Positions 826 through 4,250 of a stretch of DNA of 4,659 nt are shown one piece after another (position 1 is the stretch's first letter; each line of letters begins with the position of its first letter). Under the pieces are notes generated by a model. It was not told the DNA's origin. It worked only from the letters and a program-made list of their open reading frames with translations, and did not search any database. A program made the position numbers and the translations under genes. The stretch comes from a virus. Its lineage: Duplodnaviria; Heunggongvirae; Uroviricota; Caudoviricetes. The stretch lies in IMG/VR virus record IMGVR_UViG_3300029138_000071, one strand, 5' to 3'.

Positions 826-1110
826 CGCCCGCTTCACGGGGCGGTTTTAATGCAGTTGCATAGATACTATGGATCCGCACCAGTCCTGACCGCACGCAGC
901 CTGAACGGACATCCCCAACGCATGCAAAAACATTCACTTGTTGCATGCATAGCTTTTTAAGTACGCCATACCGCAACTGTACATTTTTAAGCAATTGGCA
1001 ACTTTAAAAAATTTACATTGCTTTCAAGACCTTATCATCCGTAGTCTCTGTTTTTTACTTTGAGCTACATCAATAAAATCTCAAACATGTTTAATGCAAA
1101 GCCCTTGTTA

Positions 1111-1164
1111 CACAACATAGAATGTATGTCTAGAAACAACGACATACTATATGTTGTGTTTTTC
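1111..1164 (+). terminator. Long imperfect AU-rich hairpin followed by a T-run; candidate intrinsic terminator or structured RNA element
   Basis: Arm cacaacata-gaat-gtatgtc (1111-1130), loop tagaaacaac, arm gacatac-ta-tatgttgtg (1141-1158): 9 bp plus 7 bp of pairing around a small internal loop, then TTTTT (1159-1163). No T-run follows on the minus strand. Confidence 0.4.
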
Positions 1165-1225
1165 CGGCTCTCTGTTCGGTGATATGCCAAATCACTTTGC
1201 GTTTAAACAGAGCATTATTTCAGGG

Positions 1226-1240
1226 CAAGACTTCGCTCAA
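1226..1240 (+). repeat. Direct repeat copy 1 (CAAGACTTCGCTCAA), in the 5' leader of the small ORF
   Basis: Identical 15-mer recurs at 1490-1504; this copy ends 64 nt upstream of the ATG at 1304. Confidence 0.9.
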
Positions 1241-1303
1241 AAGTCATTCCACCTAAGAAGCGCATATACCGGTGGAAGTTGCCCTCTACTTACAGGAGGC
1301 AAT

Positions 1304-1417
1304 ATGAAGAAATGCTATTACTGCATTCTCGTTCTGGCCCTCTTTGGCTATCCAAACGGTAGTCCGAGTGGTTTGTCAGTAAACGTCAGTAATATCAATG
1401 TCAGCATTATGCTTTAA
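1304..1417 (+). CDS. Small hydrophobic protein, 37 aa (MKKCYYCILVLALFGYPNGSPSGLSVNVSNINVSIML); candidate single-pass membrane peptide
   Basis: AGGAGG at 1294-1299, 4 nt before ATG 1304; MKK followed by a 13-residue hydrophobic stretch; stop TAA 1415-1417, then a terminator. The ORF track gives a longer in-frame version from 1151, but that ATG lies inside the hairpin stem and has no SD; an alternative start is ATG 1184. Confidence 0.45.
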   Translation: MKKCYYCILVLALFGYPNGSPSGLSVNVSNINVSIML

Positions 1418-1429
1418 TATGCTTCAAAC

Positions 1430-1459
1430 AAAAAAACCACCTGCCAGGGTGGTTTTTTT
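1430..1459. terminator. Bidirectional rho-independent terminator
   Basis: A-run 1430-1436, stem CCACC (1437-1441), loop TGCCAG, stem GGTGG (1448-1452), T-run 1453-1459. It reads as hairpin plus U-run on both strands, so it can end both the small ORF transcript (+) and the gene A early transcript (-). Confidence 0.8.
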
Positions 1460-1504: not shown

Positions 1505-1612
1505 GACGAATTATGCGTCGACATAAGGTTACCCGCAATGATTTTATTAGACTAAATAGATGGCCTTTTATGACCAGGATCAAACGGCTGTCCTTACCGA
1601 CATGCTAGTCAC

Positions 1613-1686: not shown

Positions 1687-3985
1687 TCAATGCCATATCA
1701 AATCACGTTGTATTTTTACTCAAATGGGTAACGAGAACCCCGGCCACTCATCAGCAACCGGATACGTGAATTTTTTCCCGTCATAATTTACGGTCGCGCC
1801 ACGCGCCAGCGCCTCAAGCTCCCATCGTTGCGGCCTGATACCGTTCTGAGCGAGGTCAACGCGGATACGGGTAATTTGCAATCGTTCGACCGGGTCAGTC
1901 TGGCCGACGGTGCTATTTCATGTGGTTTTAACGGGCTTCCGTTTCTTTGCTGACGATTTGGTGTTTTCAGGCCGTGTTTTAATGCATCCCTGAGCGTCCT
2001 CACGACCTCCGGGTCACTCCATTCGATGACACCGTCATCAACCAGATTAAGCACTGCTACGGCGTGCTCAGAGGGTGTGGGAGCCGGTAACGAAGTATCA
2101 CCACCAGTGAGCTTTCCACAGTTATTGACAGGACTCCGAGGCGCGGCGATGCCGCTTTTTAAAGTCAAAGGCTCAACGACCGGAGCTTTCGGCACAATGC
2201 GCCAGTCCGTCGTTCTGGTGATATGAATATGACGCGCGCCGAGATGCGGCGCGTAAATGCCGACCACTCTCTCGACTTCTTCCTCGTACTCGTTAACTTC
2301 ATCCGACGGACTACGGGCGACCCTGACAGTCTGACAATCGCGCGGGACATTTGCCCCACCCTGCGCGCTGATATACAGCGCAAAATCGCCACTGTCTGCG
2401 GCAGCGCGTGCAGCCTCGACGCGTTCGTCAAACTCATCAGCAATGCTGACGCCGCGAGGCAATTTGCGTAGTTCACGGTAAGCCCCCATTGTCGGCAGGC
2501 CAACCGTTTTAAATTGCGGAATGCGCCACGTTGACGCCCATGCGGTAACAGCCGCGGCAGTGTCTTTCAGCGGCCTGCCGGTGTCGTTATCGAGCTGACC
2601 ATCCAGTGCATAGCCATCGATGTTTTTTGAAATGTATTTCGCGATATATCCCGCAGCACCGCCCCGGTTAAGGTGTTTTGCCTGAAAACGGTTTCGCGCG
2701 GCTCCTCTTTCGTCGCCATCCTCTTTGAGCGCATAGCGACGCATGATTTCGATAATCTGGTTACGCTGGCGTGGATTACAAAAAAGCATCATATGCCAGT
2801 GCGGCGTTCCGTCGTGGTGTGGTTCAACAACACGCAAACCGTAGGCCAGTAAATCATTATCCTTGAATGCCGTGCGCATCAGGCTCCAGATACGGCAGAG
2901 ATAACGCTGCGCATCCTTTGGATTAAATGCCTCATCATTCCAGCCGTGACGGTTTTACTTTCGCCTTTTCTGACCTGACGTGTCGGGTGATACTTTGACG
3001 GCGCGGTCAGCGTGATAAACATCCCCACATCACCCTCTGCGGCAGCGTAACGCTCAATACCGGCGATGGTGTTCATCAGCTCCATCCGGCGAATTTCGGG
3101 ATTAGAAATACTGCCCATCACCTTACTGATAAGGTCGATGCGCTCGCCGGTTTCCTTGTTTTCAAGGTCACACGATTTAAGAAATTCCAGATTTGCCTGG
3201 CGGCGCGCACGCACATCACGAATGGCATGTTTACTGGCATAAGGAGAACGGTCTTTATTGACCTCCCCGACAGCAATCAGTAACGCCTCATGCCAGCGCA
3301 TACGCTGGCCTTTAAGCTGATGAGTCCACCACTCATCGTTAAACAGACGGGCAATGGCAGAATATGCCTGCCTCGTGGTCATCTGCCCTTTACGGTATTT
3401 TTTCCAGTAGAGCGGGGAAATATTGAAAGCACGTGCAGCGCCAGCAACATGACCATACAGGTGAGCCTGCGCCTCATCCGTAAACAGCGATTCTTTCTCG
3501 CCATGCGCATCCACCCAGGCATCGCAGAGTTCCTCATACATTATGAAAAGCTGCGATGAGATACGGGCGGCAAACTTTTTCAGCTCCTTGTCATTCATTC
3601 CCGGCAGGCGCGCATAGTGGTCACGCTCTGCCAGAAACAGTAACGACGCGTCGGTGTTCATTTCATGGCGCTGATTCACACGCTCAATGCGCGGCCATAA
3701 ACGCCGCTGAAAAGTGGATGTGAGGAAATAAAACCCGTGCACCGGGCTTTTATTGCGCCGGATGTAGTCATAGCGTGAAGTAAACAGCGAGCGCAAAAAG
3801 TAAGGCAGGCGGTTAATCGTGGATAAAACACCTTGCACCTGACGCATCTCGTCACGTGTAAGGGGTCTTTCGCGCCCGACAGCCTCGCGTGGCGCGTTCC
3901 ATGCATAAGCACCGGTAAACGTCTTACCGGTGCCTGCGGCAAATGCTGACGGAGGGACAAAACGCCCGGAGGCTTTAACGGCCAT
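1687..3985 (-). pseudogene. A: Replication initiation protein gpA (rolling-circle HUH endonuclease, P2 gene A), interrupted by two frameshifts
   Basis: The gene reads as three frame segments: 3985..2879 (N-terminus MAVKASGRFVPP, motif FITLTAP), 2879..1788 (HUH motif PHWHMMLF, tyrosine motif YIAKYISKNIDGY) and about 1887..1687 (ERLQITRIRVDLAQNGIRPQRWELEALARGATVNYDGKKFTYPVADEWPGFS...). The frame changes between codons KTV and HGWNDEAF near 2945-2950 (consistent with a roughly 10-nt deletion relative to my recollection of P2 A) and between RLTRS and ERLQ at 1886/1887 (consistent with a 1-nt deletion). The ORF track's ATG at 4027 is an in-frame upstream alternative start, but it overlaps the preceding gene. 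The final stop is TGA 1689..1687. Confidence 0.85.
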
Positions 3986-4250
3986 ATGAGCCAAAAGCCT
4001 CTGAACAACGCCTGCTGAGTTGCTCAACCTGCGCGTTTAAATCAGCAAAAGACTTTGCGCTTCCGGTCAGAATATCGTGATGCATCATGCCGGAAACGAG
4101 CTGGCTTAATTTCGGGTAATAACCAACCACCGCCAGCCATTCCTGACCGGCGTTTTTACCGCTTTCAGCTCTCTTTTTCTCGTGGAGAATAAACTGAAAG
4201 CTGTCACTGGTAACGACATAACGTTCGCCAATTTCAATACGAATACTCAT
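3975..4250 (-). CDS. Hypothetical early-operon protein (P2 Orf83-like position), 91 aa
   Basis: ORF 4250..3975 with a GGAG SD about 7 nt upstream; its ATG overlaps the upstream gene stop (ATGA at 4250-4247), and its 3' end overlaps the A start by 11 nt. Operon context only; no recognisable domain. Confidence 0.7.
   Translation of the reverse strand: MSIRIEIGERYVVTSDSFQFILHEKKRAESGKNAGQEWLAVVGYYPKLSQLVSGMMHHDILTGSAKSFADLNAQVEQLSRRCSEAFGSYGR

Follow-up and report, generated by a model that had tools for sequence, protein, structure and literature searches.

A candidate antisense RNA-repressed small-peptide cassette with par-like layout in P2-like prophages and on other mobile elements of Enterobacteriaceae

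In the E. coli toxin-antitoxin (TA) systems of type I known as tisB/istR-1, zorO/orzO, shoB/ohsC, dinQ/agrB and ralR/ralA, a small RNA (sRNA) transcribed from a promoter of its own pairs with the toxin mRNA over 16 to 21 nucleotides (nt), and for tisB, zorO, shoB and dinQ the pairing site lies in the 5' untranslated region far upstream of the ribosome-binding site. The promoters of such toxins can be wired to a stress regulator, which is LexA in the case of tisB and dinQ. The par locus of plasmid pAD1 combines convergent promoters, a shared bidirectional terminator, complementarity through direct repeats, a sequestered Shine-Dalgarno (SD) sequence and a small hydrophobic peptide (PMC7472228). 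Here we describe a locus with this layout on a stretch of 4,659 nt from a tailed-phage record (IMG/VR IMGVR_UViG_3300029138_000071), the whole of which is referred to as the window. It contains an open reading frame (ORF) of 37 codons at the centre of a mobile cassette of about 500 bp (approximately 1050-1550), and we consider it fairly probable that this cassette is type I TA-like and encodes an sRNA-repressed, probably membrane-active toxic peptide. Transcription of both RNAs, translation, toxicity, repression by the sRNA, membrane insertion and control by FNR and NrdR are what we infer from the sequence and its relatives.

The core of the cassette comprises the following features (positions are those of the window):

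1226-1240, plus strand: copy 1 of a direct repeat, CAAGACTTCGCTCAA, the predicted sRNA target in the mRNA leader, 64-78 nt before the AUG
1294-1299, plus strand: SD sequence AGGAGG, 4 nt before the ATG; GGAGG or GGAG is kept in all relatives
1304-1417, plus strand: ORF of 37 codons with its ATG at 1304, encoding MKKCYYCILVLALFGYPNGSPSGLSVNVSNINVSIML (37 amino acids, aa)
1429-1460, both strands: bidirectional intrinsic terminator with 13-nt arms (100% complementary) and a 6-nt loop, 11 nt past the stop codon
1490-1504, plus strand: copy 2 of the direct repeat, CAAGACTTCGCTCAA, beyond the terminator; its reverse complement is the predicted 5' end of the sRNA
1503 to 1426, minus strand: predicted sRNA of about 77 nt, with its antisense element at the 5' end (1503-1490), followed by a hairpin (about 1486-1462) and the terminator hairpin
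1510-1538, minus strand: predicted sRNA promoter with -10 CATAAT (reverse complement of 1510-1515), -35 TTGCGG (reverse complement of 1533-1538) and a 17-nt spacer

An A-run before and a T-run after the inverted repeat of the terminator make termination possible in both directions, and the terminator, which is nearly invariant across the relatives, would be common to the mRNA and the predicted sRNA. The direct repeat is exact over 15 nt, for which our own arithmetic gives a chance expectation of about 7e-4 in 1.26 kb. Through the shared terminator and the direct repeat the two RNAs are thus complementary to each other at two places. For each of 15 distinct versions of the cassette we predicted duplexes of the sRNA's first 30 nt with the mRNA, excluding the terminator and using 30 shuffles per relative. 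The best predicted duplex lies at the leader repeat in 15/15 versions and starts at sRNA nt 1-2; it comprises 14-18 contiguous pairs, ends 63-66 nt before the AUG and has an energy of -29 to -39 kcal/mol, which is better than 30/30 shuffles for each relative. In the most distant clade, from Leclercia, Salmonella and Citrobacter (L061-L063), where little sequence past the terminator can be aligned by BLAST, GGCAAGACTTCGCTCA is replaced by GGTAAGGCTTTGCTCA in both copies, corresponding to three concerted substitutions. The two changes found in one copy only, A to G in copy 1 of L045, an F-like plasmid from a metagenome, and C to T in copy 1 of a further relative (L065), lead to G-U wobbles with the sRNA and not to mismatches. 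At the level of sequence prediction the locus therefore encodes an RNA complementary to the peptide mRNA, as type I systems do. The original prediction, made from the window alone, had likened the ORF to type I toxins or phage moron peptides, and this reading is strengthened by the predicted converging antisense sRNA with its conserved promoter and by the concerted changes in the pairing region.

The same three-part fold is predicted for the sRNA in 15/15 versions, with a tail of about 17 nt at the 5' end that includes the complement of the repeat, then a hairpin and the terminator hairpin, and the predicted length ranges from 73 to 79 nt. The sequence of the hairpin differs by clade (GUCU.UCAUC/GAUGA.GGGC, GUCCUU/AAGGAC, GUUUUCA.CCU/AGG.CUGAAAAC and GUUCGGGUCUG/CAGGUCUGAAC), and the fold of the window sRNA has a z-score of -4.45. 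This hairpin and the leader helix P4 described below were judged by per-sequence folds, since MAFFT leaves both out of register. The hexamers of the sRNA promoter are invariant or nearly so in the relatives, and the spacer keeps its length while its sequence diverges freely. Homology to the plasmid copies of the cassette stops just past this promoter, at about 1550. A promoter scanner reported a single plus-strand site (1486-1514) and missed both the sRNA promoter and the mRNA promoter discussed below, because their -35 hexamers match at 3/6 positions. A whole-window Rfam scan (E up to 1) found no family at the locus and no Sok, IstR, OhsC, OrzO or similar RNA; sub-threshold matches to RNAI and Phe_leader (25-26 bits versus gathering thresholds of 47-55) were driven by the terminator hairpin and were discarded. 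The sRNA Esr41 (on SpLE1) and the Pas sRNAs (lambdoid prophages) are unrelated to the cassette sRNA, and none of the sRNA candidates KpnR_124, KpnR_126, KpnR_127 and KpnR_128 of Klebsiella pneumoniae MGH 78578 plasmid pKPN3 corresponds to the cassette. As a separate observation, the Hfq-bound KpnR_127 and KpnR_128 flank an annotated Hok-family gene on pKPN3 (L067, 133742-134491) that is unrelated to the cassette, and they may represent the Sok-like partner and the mRNA leader of that gene.

The ORF is under purifying selection and is not a chance ORF. Its versions were gathered by scans of viral and metagenome contigs and of plasmids; three viral-contig scans yielded one and the same set of 30 loci, representing only three haplotypes, a genome-contig scan with a degenerate peptide pattern gave no matches, and a scan for the repeat-pair pattern yielded one relevant locus and four unrelated ones. 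The ORF is intact in every relative examined, that is, in 15 distinct DNA versions with 37, 38 or 39 codons and no internal stops, whose peptides range from identical to approximately 35% identical. Summed over nine versions with 37 codons, the proportions of synonymous (pS) and nonsynonymous (pN) differences in its own frame are 0.54 and 0.17 (pN/pS 0.32, zero stops). Four of five control frames show pN/pS values of 0.9-1.25 and 13-25 stops, and the fifth, an antisense frame with common third codon positions, has a value of 0.41 and 22 stops. Fisher p values for single pairs are as low as 7e-6, pairwise ratios of nonsynonymous to synonymous substitution rates are mostly 0.1-0.4, and half of the variable columns (30/60) fall on third codon positions, compared with 17 and 13 on first and second positions. 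In addition, the length of the ORF is steady at 37-39 codons although the flanks carry indels. Conservation of the frame with synonymous-biased substitution, which had been suggested as a check of the gene, was thus found, and the SD sequence, the 37-codon ORF and the terminator on which the gene had been proposed are all present. The unit itself had been drawn too narrowly, at 1290-1459; this span contains the gene, but the true unit extends over approximately 1050-1550.

The peptide consists of a basic N-terminus, a 13-residue hydrophobic segment (C4 to Y16; maximum Kyte-Doolittle mean over seven residues 3.5) and a C-terminal half that has no charged residues, is rich in Ser and Asn and shows an alternation of hydrophobic and polar residues. 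With 37 aa it is small (<60 aa) and hydrophobic, as are type I toxins. The family consensus reads M-[KND]-[KR]-x(2,3)-C-[IL]-[LF]-[VI]-L-[AT]-L, followed by a Gly/Ser/Gln-rich turn to G-[LW] and then by the alternating tail, whose hydrophobic/polar pattern survives many amino acid substitutions across the relatives. No match to the peptide was found among Pfam, NCBIfam, PHROG or PADLOC models, six peptides of the cassette family had no match in Pfam-A or NCBIfam at E up to 10, and three had none among PADLOC defence proteins; together with the Rfam result for the locus, this agrees with the earlier statement that the sequence was not recognised as a member of the Hok, Ldr, Ibs, TisB, ShoB, ZorO or DinQ families. 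A padded peptide query matched only three database proteins, and among 1.84 billion protein representatives there are only 7 clusters for this ORF, which is not called by the NCBI prokaryotic genome annotation pipeline (PGAP) or by most other gene callers. An 88-codon extension starting at an upstream ATG (1151) was rejected, since an in-frame TAG replaces AAG at 1241-1243 in haplotypes that are 86-88% identical; this longer version is nonetheless called in one database entry (P0004). Two rare variants were also seen, one of which lacks the stop codon and reads through the terminator (68 aa) while the other diverges after LALFGY (71 aa); these (P0002 and P0003) could be decayed copies.

The predicted mRNA leader is structured, as judged from RNAalifold and minimum free energy folds, and its helices are predicted as follows:

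1131-1303, plus strand: 5' leader of about 173 nt
1170-1176 with 1206-1212, plus strand: helix P1 (CUCUGUU/AACAGAG)
1178-1183 with 1191-1196, plus strand: helix P2 (GGUGAU/AUCACU) with a GCCA loop
1247-1253 with 1271-1277, plus strand: helix P3 (UCCACC/GGUGGA)
1223-1228 with 1279-1284, plus strand: possible long-range helix P4, from single-sequence folds
about 1281-1287 with 1295-1299, plus strand: anti-SD pairing between an upstream C-rich stretch and the SD sequence

For nine relatives RNAalifold predicts 31 pairs, four of them with compensatory changes, with the SD sequence paired; it also predicts a small hairpin with CGCUCAA in the loop. The helices are kept between clades while their sequences differ, P1 being CUCUGCC/GGCAGAG in L064 and P2 being GUGCUU/AAGCAC in L061. 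P4, which would join the 5' flank of the sRNA target site to the region just before the SD sequence, is formed by GGGCAA/UUGCCC in the window; the plasmid clade has GGUGGC/GCCGCC for this helix and the distant clade UGGUGG/CCACCA. A switch triggered by the sRNA, in which P4 and the anti-SD pairing would alternate, received no uniform support from the folds, and both can coexist in a contig from Citrobacter (L039).

Upstream of the leader lies a sequence related to the host promoter of nrdDG, the genes of the anaerobic ribonucleotide reductase. The promoter elements were derived from an alignment to nrdD and to the cassette relatives and compared with two published accounts (PMC12176259, PMC2892513):

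1004-1105, plus strand: homologue, found by blastn, of the treC-nrdD intergenic region (the upstream half of the nrdDG promoter)
1060-1073, plus strand: FNR-2-like site TTGAGCTACATCAA, identical to the E. coli nrdDG site
1091-1104, plus strand: FNR-1-like site TTAATGCAAAGCCC; TTGATGCAAA.. in nrdD and other cassette clades
1110-1125, plus strand: NrdR-box-like sequence ACACAACATAGAATGT, 13/16 to the consensus, overlapping the -10 hexamer
1118-1123, plus strand: -10 hexamer TAGAAT; TAAAAT in nrdD and most relatives
1144-1159, plus strand: NrdR-box-like sequence ATACTATATGTTGTGT, 14/16 to the consensus, equivalent to nrdDG box 2

The segment 1004-1105 has a match in 5426/5426 complete E. coli genomes (E about 1e-13 to 5e-16), with an identity of 78-80% over 102 bp among the matches listed and 86% for one shorter match; in BL21(DE3) the match falls between treC and nrdD. 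The FNR-1-like site, whose left half-site matches at 4/5 positions, lies 31 bp downstream of the FNR-2-like site, the spacing found in nrdDG, so that the arrangement of two FNR-like sites 31 bp apart upstream of a -10 hexamer is present in the sequence as in promoters of the nrdDG type. The -10 column is conserved in 10/10 aligned promoters, and from the hexamer and its distance to FNR-1 the mRNA is predicted to start at about 1130-1131. An initial assignment of the -10 element to TTTAAT (1090-1095, start at about 1102), with 1110-1159 read as a 5' RNA hairpin, was dropped after alignment to the nrdDG probe and the relatives. The original prediction had missed this nrdDG-derived promoter, but its account of the gene is otherwise supported.

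NrdR of E. coli binds a 57-bp nrdDG probe (PMC12176259), and nrdDG is activated by FNR, with the NrdR1 box overlapping one FNR site (PMC2892513). Canonical NrdR boxes are 16 bp long with the core CWATATATWG and are spaced by 31-32 bp (PMC2892513, PMC12176259). The core of the box at 1144-1159 is CTATATGTTG, compared with CAATATGTTG in the NrdR-bound nrdDG probe (PMC12176259). The spacing of the boxes varies in the family: L061 and L064 have good boxes at the canonical 31 bp, box 1 is shifted in haplotypes B and C, where the spacing is 32 bp, and in L039, L045 and L065 the distance is 41-42 bp, equal to one extra helical turn. The core of box 2 in the Salmonella plasmid copy (L062), CTACAGGTAG, is identical to that of nrdAB box 2 (PMC12176259), and the boxes of a Klebsiella copy (L054) are degenerate. 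That helical phasing has been restored repeatedly suggests that NrdR binding is selected for in some members of the family at least. A long inverted repeat (ACACAACATA..TATGTTGTGT, 1110-1119/1150-1159) also spans the -10 hexamer, the predicted start and NrdR-like box 2; its inner arms GTATGTC/GACATAC (1124-1130/1141-1147) are specific to the window haplotype and absent in the 86-88% identical haplotypes. It might be either a DNA palindrome for NrdR or in part a 5' hairpin of the RNA.

The segment 900-1790 is found at a coverage of at least 80% in 149/5426 complete E. coli genomes, always beside the 3' end of the phage gene A, and the E. coli copies are never annotated by PGAP. Versions that are 86-88% identical occur in sequenced P2-like phages. 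In the Citrobacter contig L039, the F-like plasmid L045 and about 390 IncF plasmids of Klebsiella, homology with the window is confined to approximately 1050-1550; in PLSDB the cassette is present on about 390 of 72,556 plasmids, largely Klebsiella IncF. Further copies are located on plasmids of Enterobacter, Leclercia, Salmonella and Citrobacter and at loci next to inovirus secretin and Zot genes. The latter encode MKRLYHCILVLALIGYPVGSQSNWSVTVSQVSINVSL and MNRWHYCILVLALFFGYPVDNQSGLSLNISHVSVNILL beside genes for secretin, Zot and DUF2523 (L064, 3306-4528; L065, 1301-3982; L066), a neighbourhood that is the gene set of filamentous (inovirus-like) prophages. Since the homology is limited to about 500 bp and the flanks of the plasmid and inovirus copies are unrelated to one another, the cassette is a self-contained mobile unit present on three kinds of mobile element. 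Such a distribution over plasmids, P2-like phages and inovirus-like prophages is what addiction modules typically show. Two plasmid copies have neighbours worth recording: an Rpn-family nuclease gene adjoins the cassette on the Salmonella plasmid (L062, 30-125), where a DinQ-like type I toxin, DqlB, is annotated 2.4 kb away, and the copy on the Citrobacter plasmid (L063) adjoins an Abi-family gene and an Rpn gene.

These features suggest the following model. The plus strand would be transcribed into an mRNA of about 330 nt (approximately 1131-1460), whose structured leader can sequester the SD sequence, and the minus strand into the sRNA of about 77 nt from a probably constitutive sigma-70 promoter, both converging on the common terminator. 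Pairing of the sRNA 5' end with the leader repeat would hold the mRNA untranslated or mark it for cleavage. If the element were lost or mRNA synthesis surged, the presumably membrane-active peptide would be made and would serve either the maintenance of the carrier element or a growth arrest triggered by stress or infection. By its homology to the nrdDG promoter, the peptide mRNA is predicted to be switched on under anaerobiosis by FNR and, at least in relatives with canonical boxes, to be repressed by NrdR when dATP/ATP signals sufficient deoxynucleotides (dNTPs). More tentatively, and with considerable doubt, we suggest that the cassette represents a new type I TA-like family that copied the host anaerobic ribonucleotide reductase promoter and thereby couples a membrane-active peptide to oxygen (FNR) and dNTP status (NrdR), so that replication or nucleotide stress, as caused by phage infection or element loss, might be sensed and growth arrested specifically in the anaerobic gut.

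Several observations weigh against a toxic peptide controlled in this way. Most type I toxins form a full transmembrane helix, often with a charged tail. The hydrophobic stretch of the peptide comprises only about 13 aa and its best 19-residue Kyte-Doolittle mean is 1.11, so that a full membrane-spanning helix is not assured; the 13-residue segment noted in the original prediction is there, but the transmembrane helix is weaker than had been stated. Codons 6-15 (1319-1347, TACTGCATTCTCGTTCTGGCCCTCTTTGG) are almost frozen at synonymous sites too, in cassettes that are otherwise 72-80% identical, which points to a further constraint, for instance from RNA structure or some other binding partner. 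The core of the repeat does not vary otherwise; the covariation thus amounts to one clade-level event and two wobble changes, and a concerted change could be mimicked by gene conversion between the repeats or by a DNA-binding protein recognizing both copies. The 43-nt 5' part of the window sRNA folds by itself no better than shuffled sequences (z = -1.1). The upstream NrdR-like box of the window is degenerate or shifted and its spacing is 34 bp, which makes NrdR control in the window doubtful. Finally, no sRNA is listed at a cassette copy in the one transcriptome resource compared, that of K. pneumoniae MGH 78578, whose plasmids are not established as carriers (PMC10907235).

The strongest alternative is that the peptide is a moron, namely a small accessory protein, non-toxic and either membrane-bound or exported, that is tuned by the antisense sRNA and by FNR and NrdR and has no role in addiction or killing; it could modulate the host envelope or nucleotide physiology in the anaerobic gut, for example, or block superinfection. 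The N-terminus, with its basic n-region and an h-region of 11-13 residues, looks equally like a signal or anchor, and its hydropathy stays under the classic transmembrane threshold. The conserved uncharged amphipathic pattern of the C-terminal half, the promoter borrowed from a metabolic gene and a position in P2-like phages that carries accessory cargo are likewise consistent with such a function. However, the full par-like architecture serves in known cases to keep a harmful product off (PMC7472228), and the spread of a 500-bp unit over mobile elements of three unrelated kinds is more in keeping with a selfish module than with a gene of benefit to the host. We therefore regard a non-toxic role as possible and to be taken seriously, if on the whole unlikely.

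Much less probable is a locus acting purely at the RNA or DNA level, that is, a decaying copy of the nrdDG promoter with one or two non-coding RNAs or protein-binding repeats and an untranslated ORF. Within the P2 clade the leader, terminator and sRNA region are indeed no less conserved than the ORF; codons 6-15 hardly vary, their synonymous sites included; and the small number of database clusters and the failure of PGAP and most other callers to report the ORF point in the same direction. Against this stand the pN/pS of 0.32 in the ORF frame (the antisense frame with 0.41 has 22 stops), the 15 versions that remain free of stops at 37-39 codons despite the indels in their flanks, and the SD sequence, ATG and residue pattern that are kept through nucleotide change.

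Hardly credible, finally, is the idea that the repeat copies are protein-binding sites or relics of a duplication and that a minus-strand RNA, if made, acts in trans on other targets: the repeat core is almost invariant and the concerted change in one clade could be due to gene conversion, but copy 2 begins exactly at the predicted +1 of a conserved promoter and hence forms the 5' end of the sRNA, copy 1 is fixed at -64 from the AUG despite the diverged leader, both single-copy changes are compatible with wobble pairing in the RNA sense, and no protein gene accompanies the cassette among the carriers compared. Even taken together, the non-coding and other readings appear improbable to us, and a type I TA-like cassette encoding a toxic peptide is the reading we prefer.

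Should the type I TA-like reading be correct, an unannotated family would be added to those of Enterobacteriaceae, carried not only by plasmids but also by the P2-like prophages of about 3% of the complete E. coli genomes and by inovirus-like prophages, and invisible to PGAP, Pfam, NCBIfam, Rfam and PADLOC. The par layout, which to our knowledge has so far been described for Firmicutes, would then exist on mobile elements of Gram-negative bacteria. A mobile element would have wired a toxin to the sensing of oxygen and dNTPs, with FNR and NrdR sites re-spaced in steps of helical turns, and the cassette might be the first NrdR target outside nucleotide metabolism; NrdR is otherwise known essentially for its regulation of nrd genes. 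In the literature we found nothing on the peptide, on the sRNA or on a link between NrdR and type I toxins. The cassette could aid the stability of clinically important plasmids and would belong in annotation sets for TA systems and sRNAs.

The window itself represents a P2-like prophage in reversed orientation relative to the P2 map, and the ORF locus lies within the roughly 900 bp that separate cos from gene A:

up to 637: portal gene, which ends at 637
807-825: 19-mer GTGCTTTCCCCGCCTCGCC, a sequence match to the P2 cos cohesive end
minus strand: gene A, for which near-identical E. coli chromosomes have the annotation replication endonuclease

The slot between gene A and cos to which the peptide gene had been assigned is thus borne out by the cos 19-mer and by the minus-strand gene A. 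Compared with an E. coli prophage that is 99.7% identical and whose gene of 2277 nt is intact, gene A of the window (1720-4064, minus strand) is disrupted by two deletions, one of 1 nt near 1886 and one of 10 nt (GATTAAGCTG) near 2947, and the stop codon of an intact gene would fall at about 1720 instead of 1788. This reflects either a replication-defective prophage or assembly errors. A run of 23 N at 401-423, inside the portal gene, indicates a draft or scaffolded assembly. Some relatives with the cassette carry large defence cargo between the portal gene and cos, not between cos and gene A (L001, 373-2847, cos at 2908; L005, 990-2878, cos at 3213), one of them with a SIR2-family protein, the other with the reverse transcriptase and effector of retron Ec48. 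P2 itself has tin and old between cos and gene A, and the cargo on the portal side in cassette relatives thus indicates that both sides of cos are cargo slots. In the E. coli assemblies NZ_CP185789, NZ_CP066839, NZ_CP119008 and NZ_CP168035 the region lies at identical coordinates (2207-3097 from base 1), which suggests that these assemblies were rotated to begin at P2 gene A, perhaps because this gene was mistaken for the start point at a replication initiator.

The cassette promoter is related by sequence to the host nrdDG promoter. Both share approximately 150 bp of homologous sequence with the order FNR-2, FNR-1, -10 TA(A/G)AAT and NrdR-like boxes; in contrast to the host locus, the cassette promoter precedes a 37-codon ORF and not nrdD, and there is no similarity past box 2. 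With tisB/istR-1 and zorO/orzO the cassette has in common that the predicted pairing takes place far upstream of the ribosome-binding site. In the tisB, zorO, shoB, dinQ and ralR systems, however, the sRNA genes are divergent or located elsewhere and have no terminator in common with the mRNA, and none of these systems is known to use an nrd-type promoter. Searches of Pfam-A and NCBIfam at E up to 10 gave no match to Hok/Gef, TisB, ShoB, Ibs, ZorO or DinQ/DqlB, the coverage of each family by these libraries being unchecked; the NCBI annotation recognizes DqlB on the Salmonella plasmid and not the cassette ORF. Like hok/sok of R1, F and pKPN3, the cassette would be a small-peptide addiction module on enterobacterial plasmids and prophages that is repressed by an antisense RNA, and an annotated Hok gene is present on a Klebsiella plasmid of the kind that carries the cassette. 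Unlike hok/sok, it has neither a Hok match in Pfam or NCBIfam nor an overlapping mok-like frame, and its sRNA is not antisense to the translation initiation region.

The closest resemblance is to par (Fst/RNA I-RNA II) of Enterococcus faecalis pAD1. Both have convergent promoters, a common bidirectional terminator and opposed direct repeats, a predicted intramolecular sequestration of the SD sequence, and a peptide of about 35 aa whose hydrophobic segment is N-terminal, and both are found on plasmids and phages; the convergent promoters, bidirectional terminator and direct-repeat complementarity of par and Fst/Ldr systems are thus present. The hosts of the cassette, in contrast, are Enterobacteriaceae, its single repeat lies 64-78 nt upstream of the AUG whereas par has two over the translation initiation region, its sRNA is about 77 nt long compared with about 40 nt, and its putative toxin promoter carries FNR and NrdR-like sites. 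The peptide also differs in sequence from Fst and Ldr, having no PXXXG(C) motif, no charged C-terminal tail (there is no charge after K3) and no match to the Fst/Ldr family models. This divergence from Fst/Ldr, together with the absence of a match to any known toxin family, points to a separate family with a par-like design.

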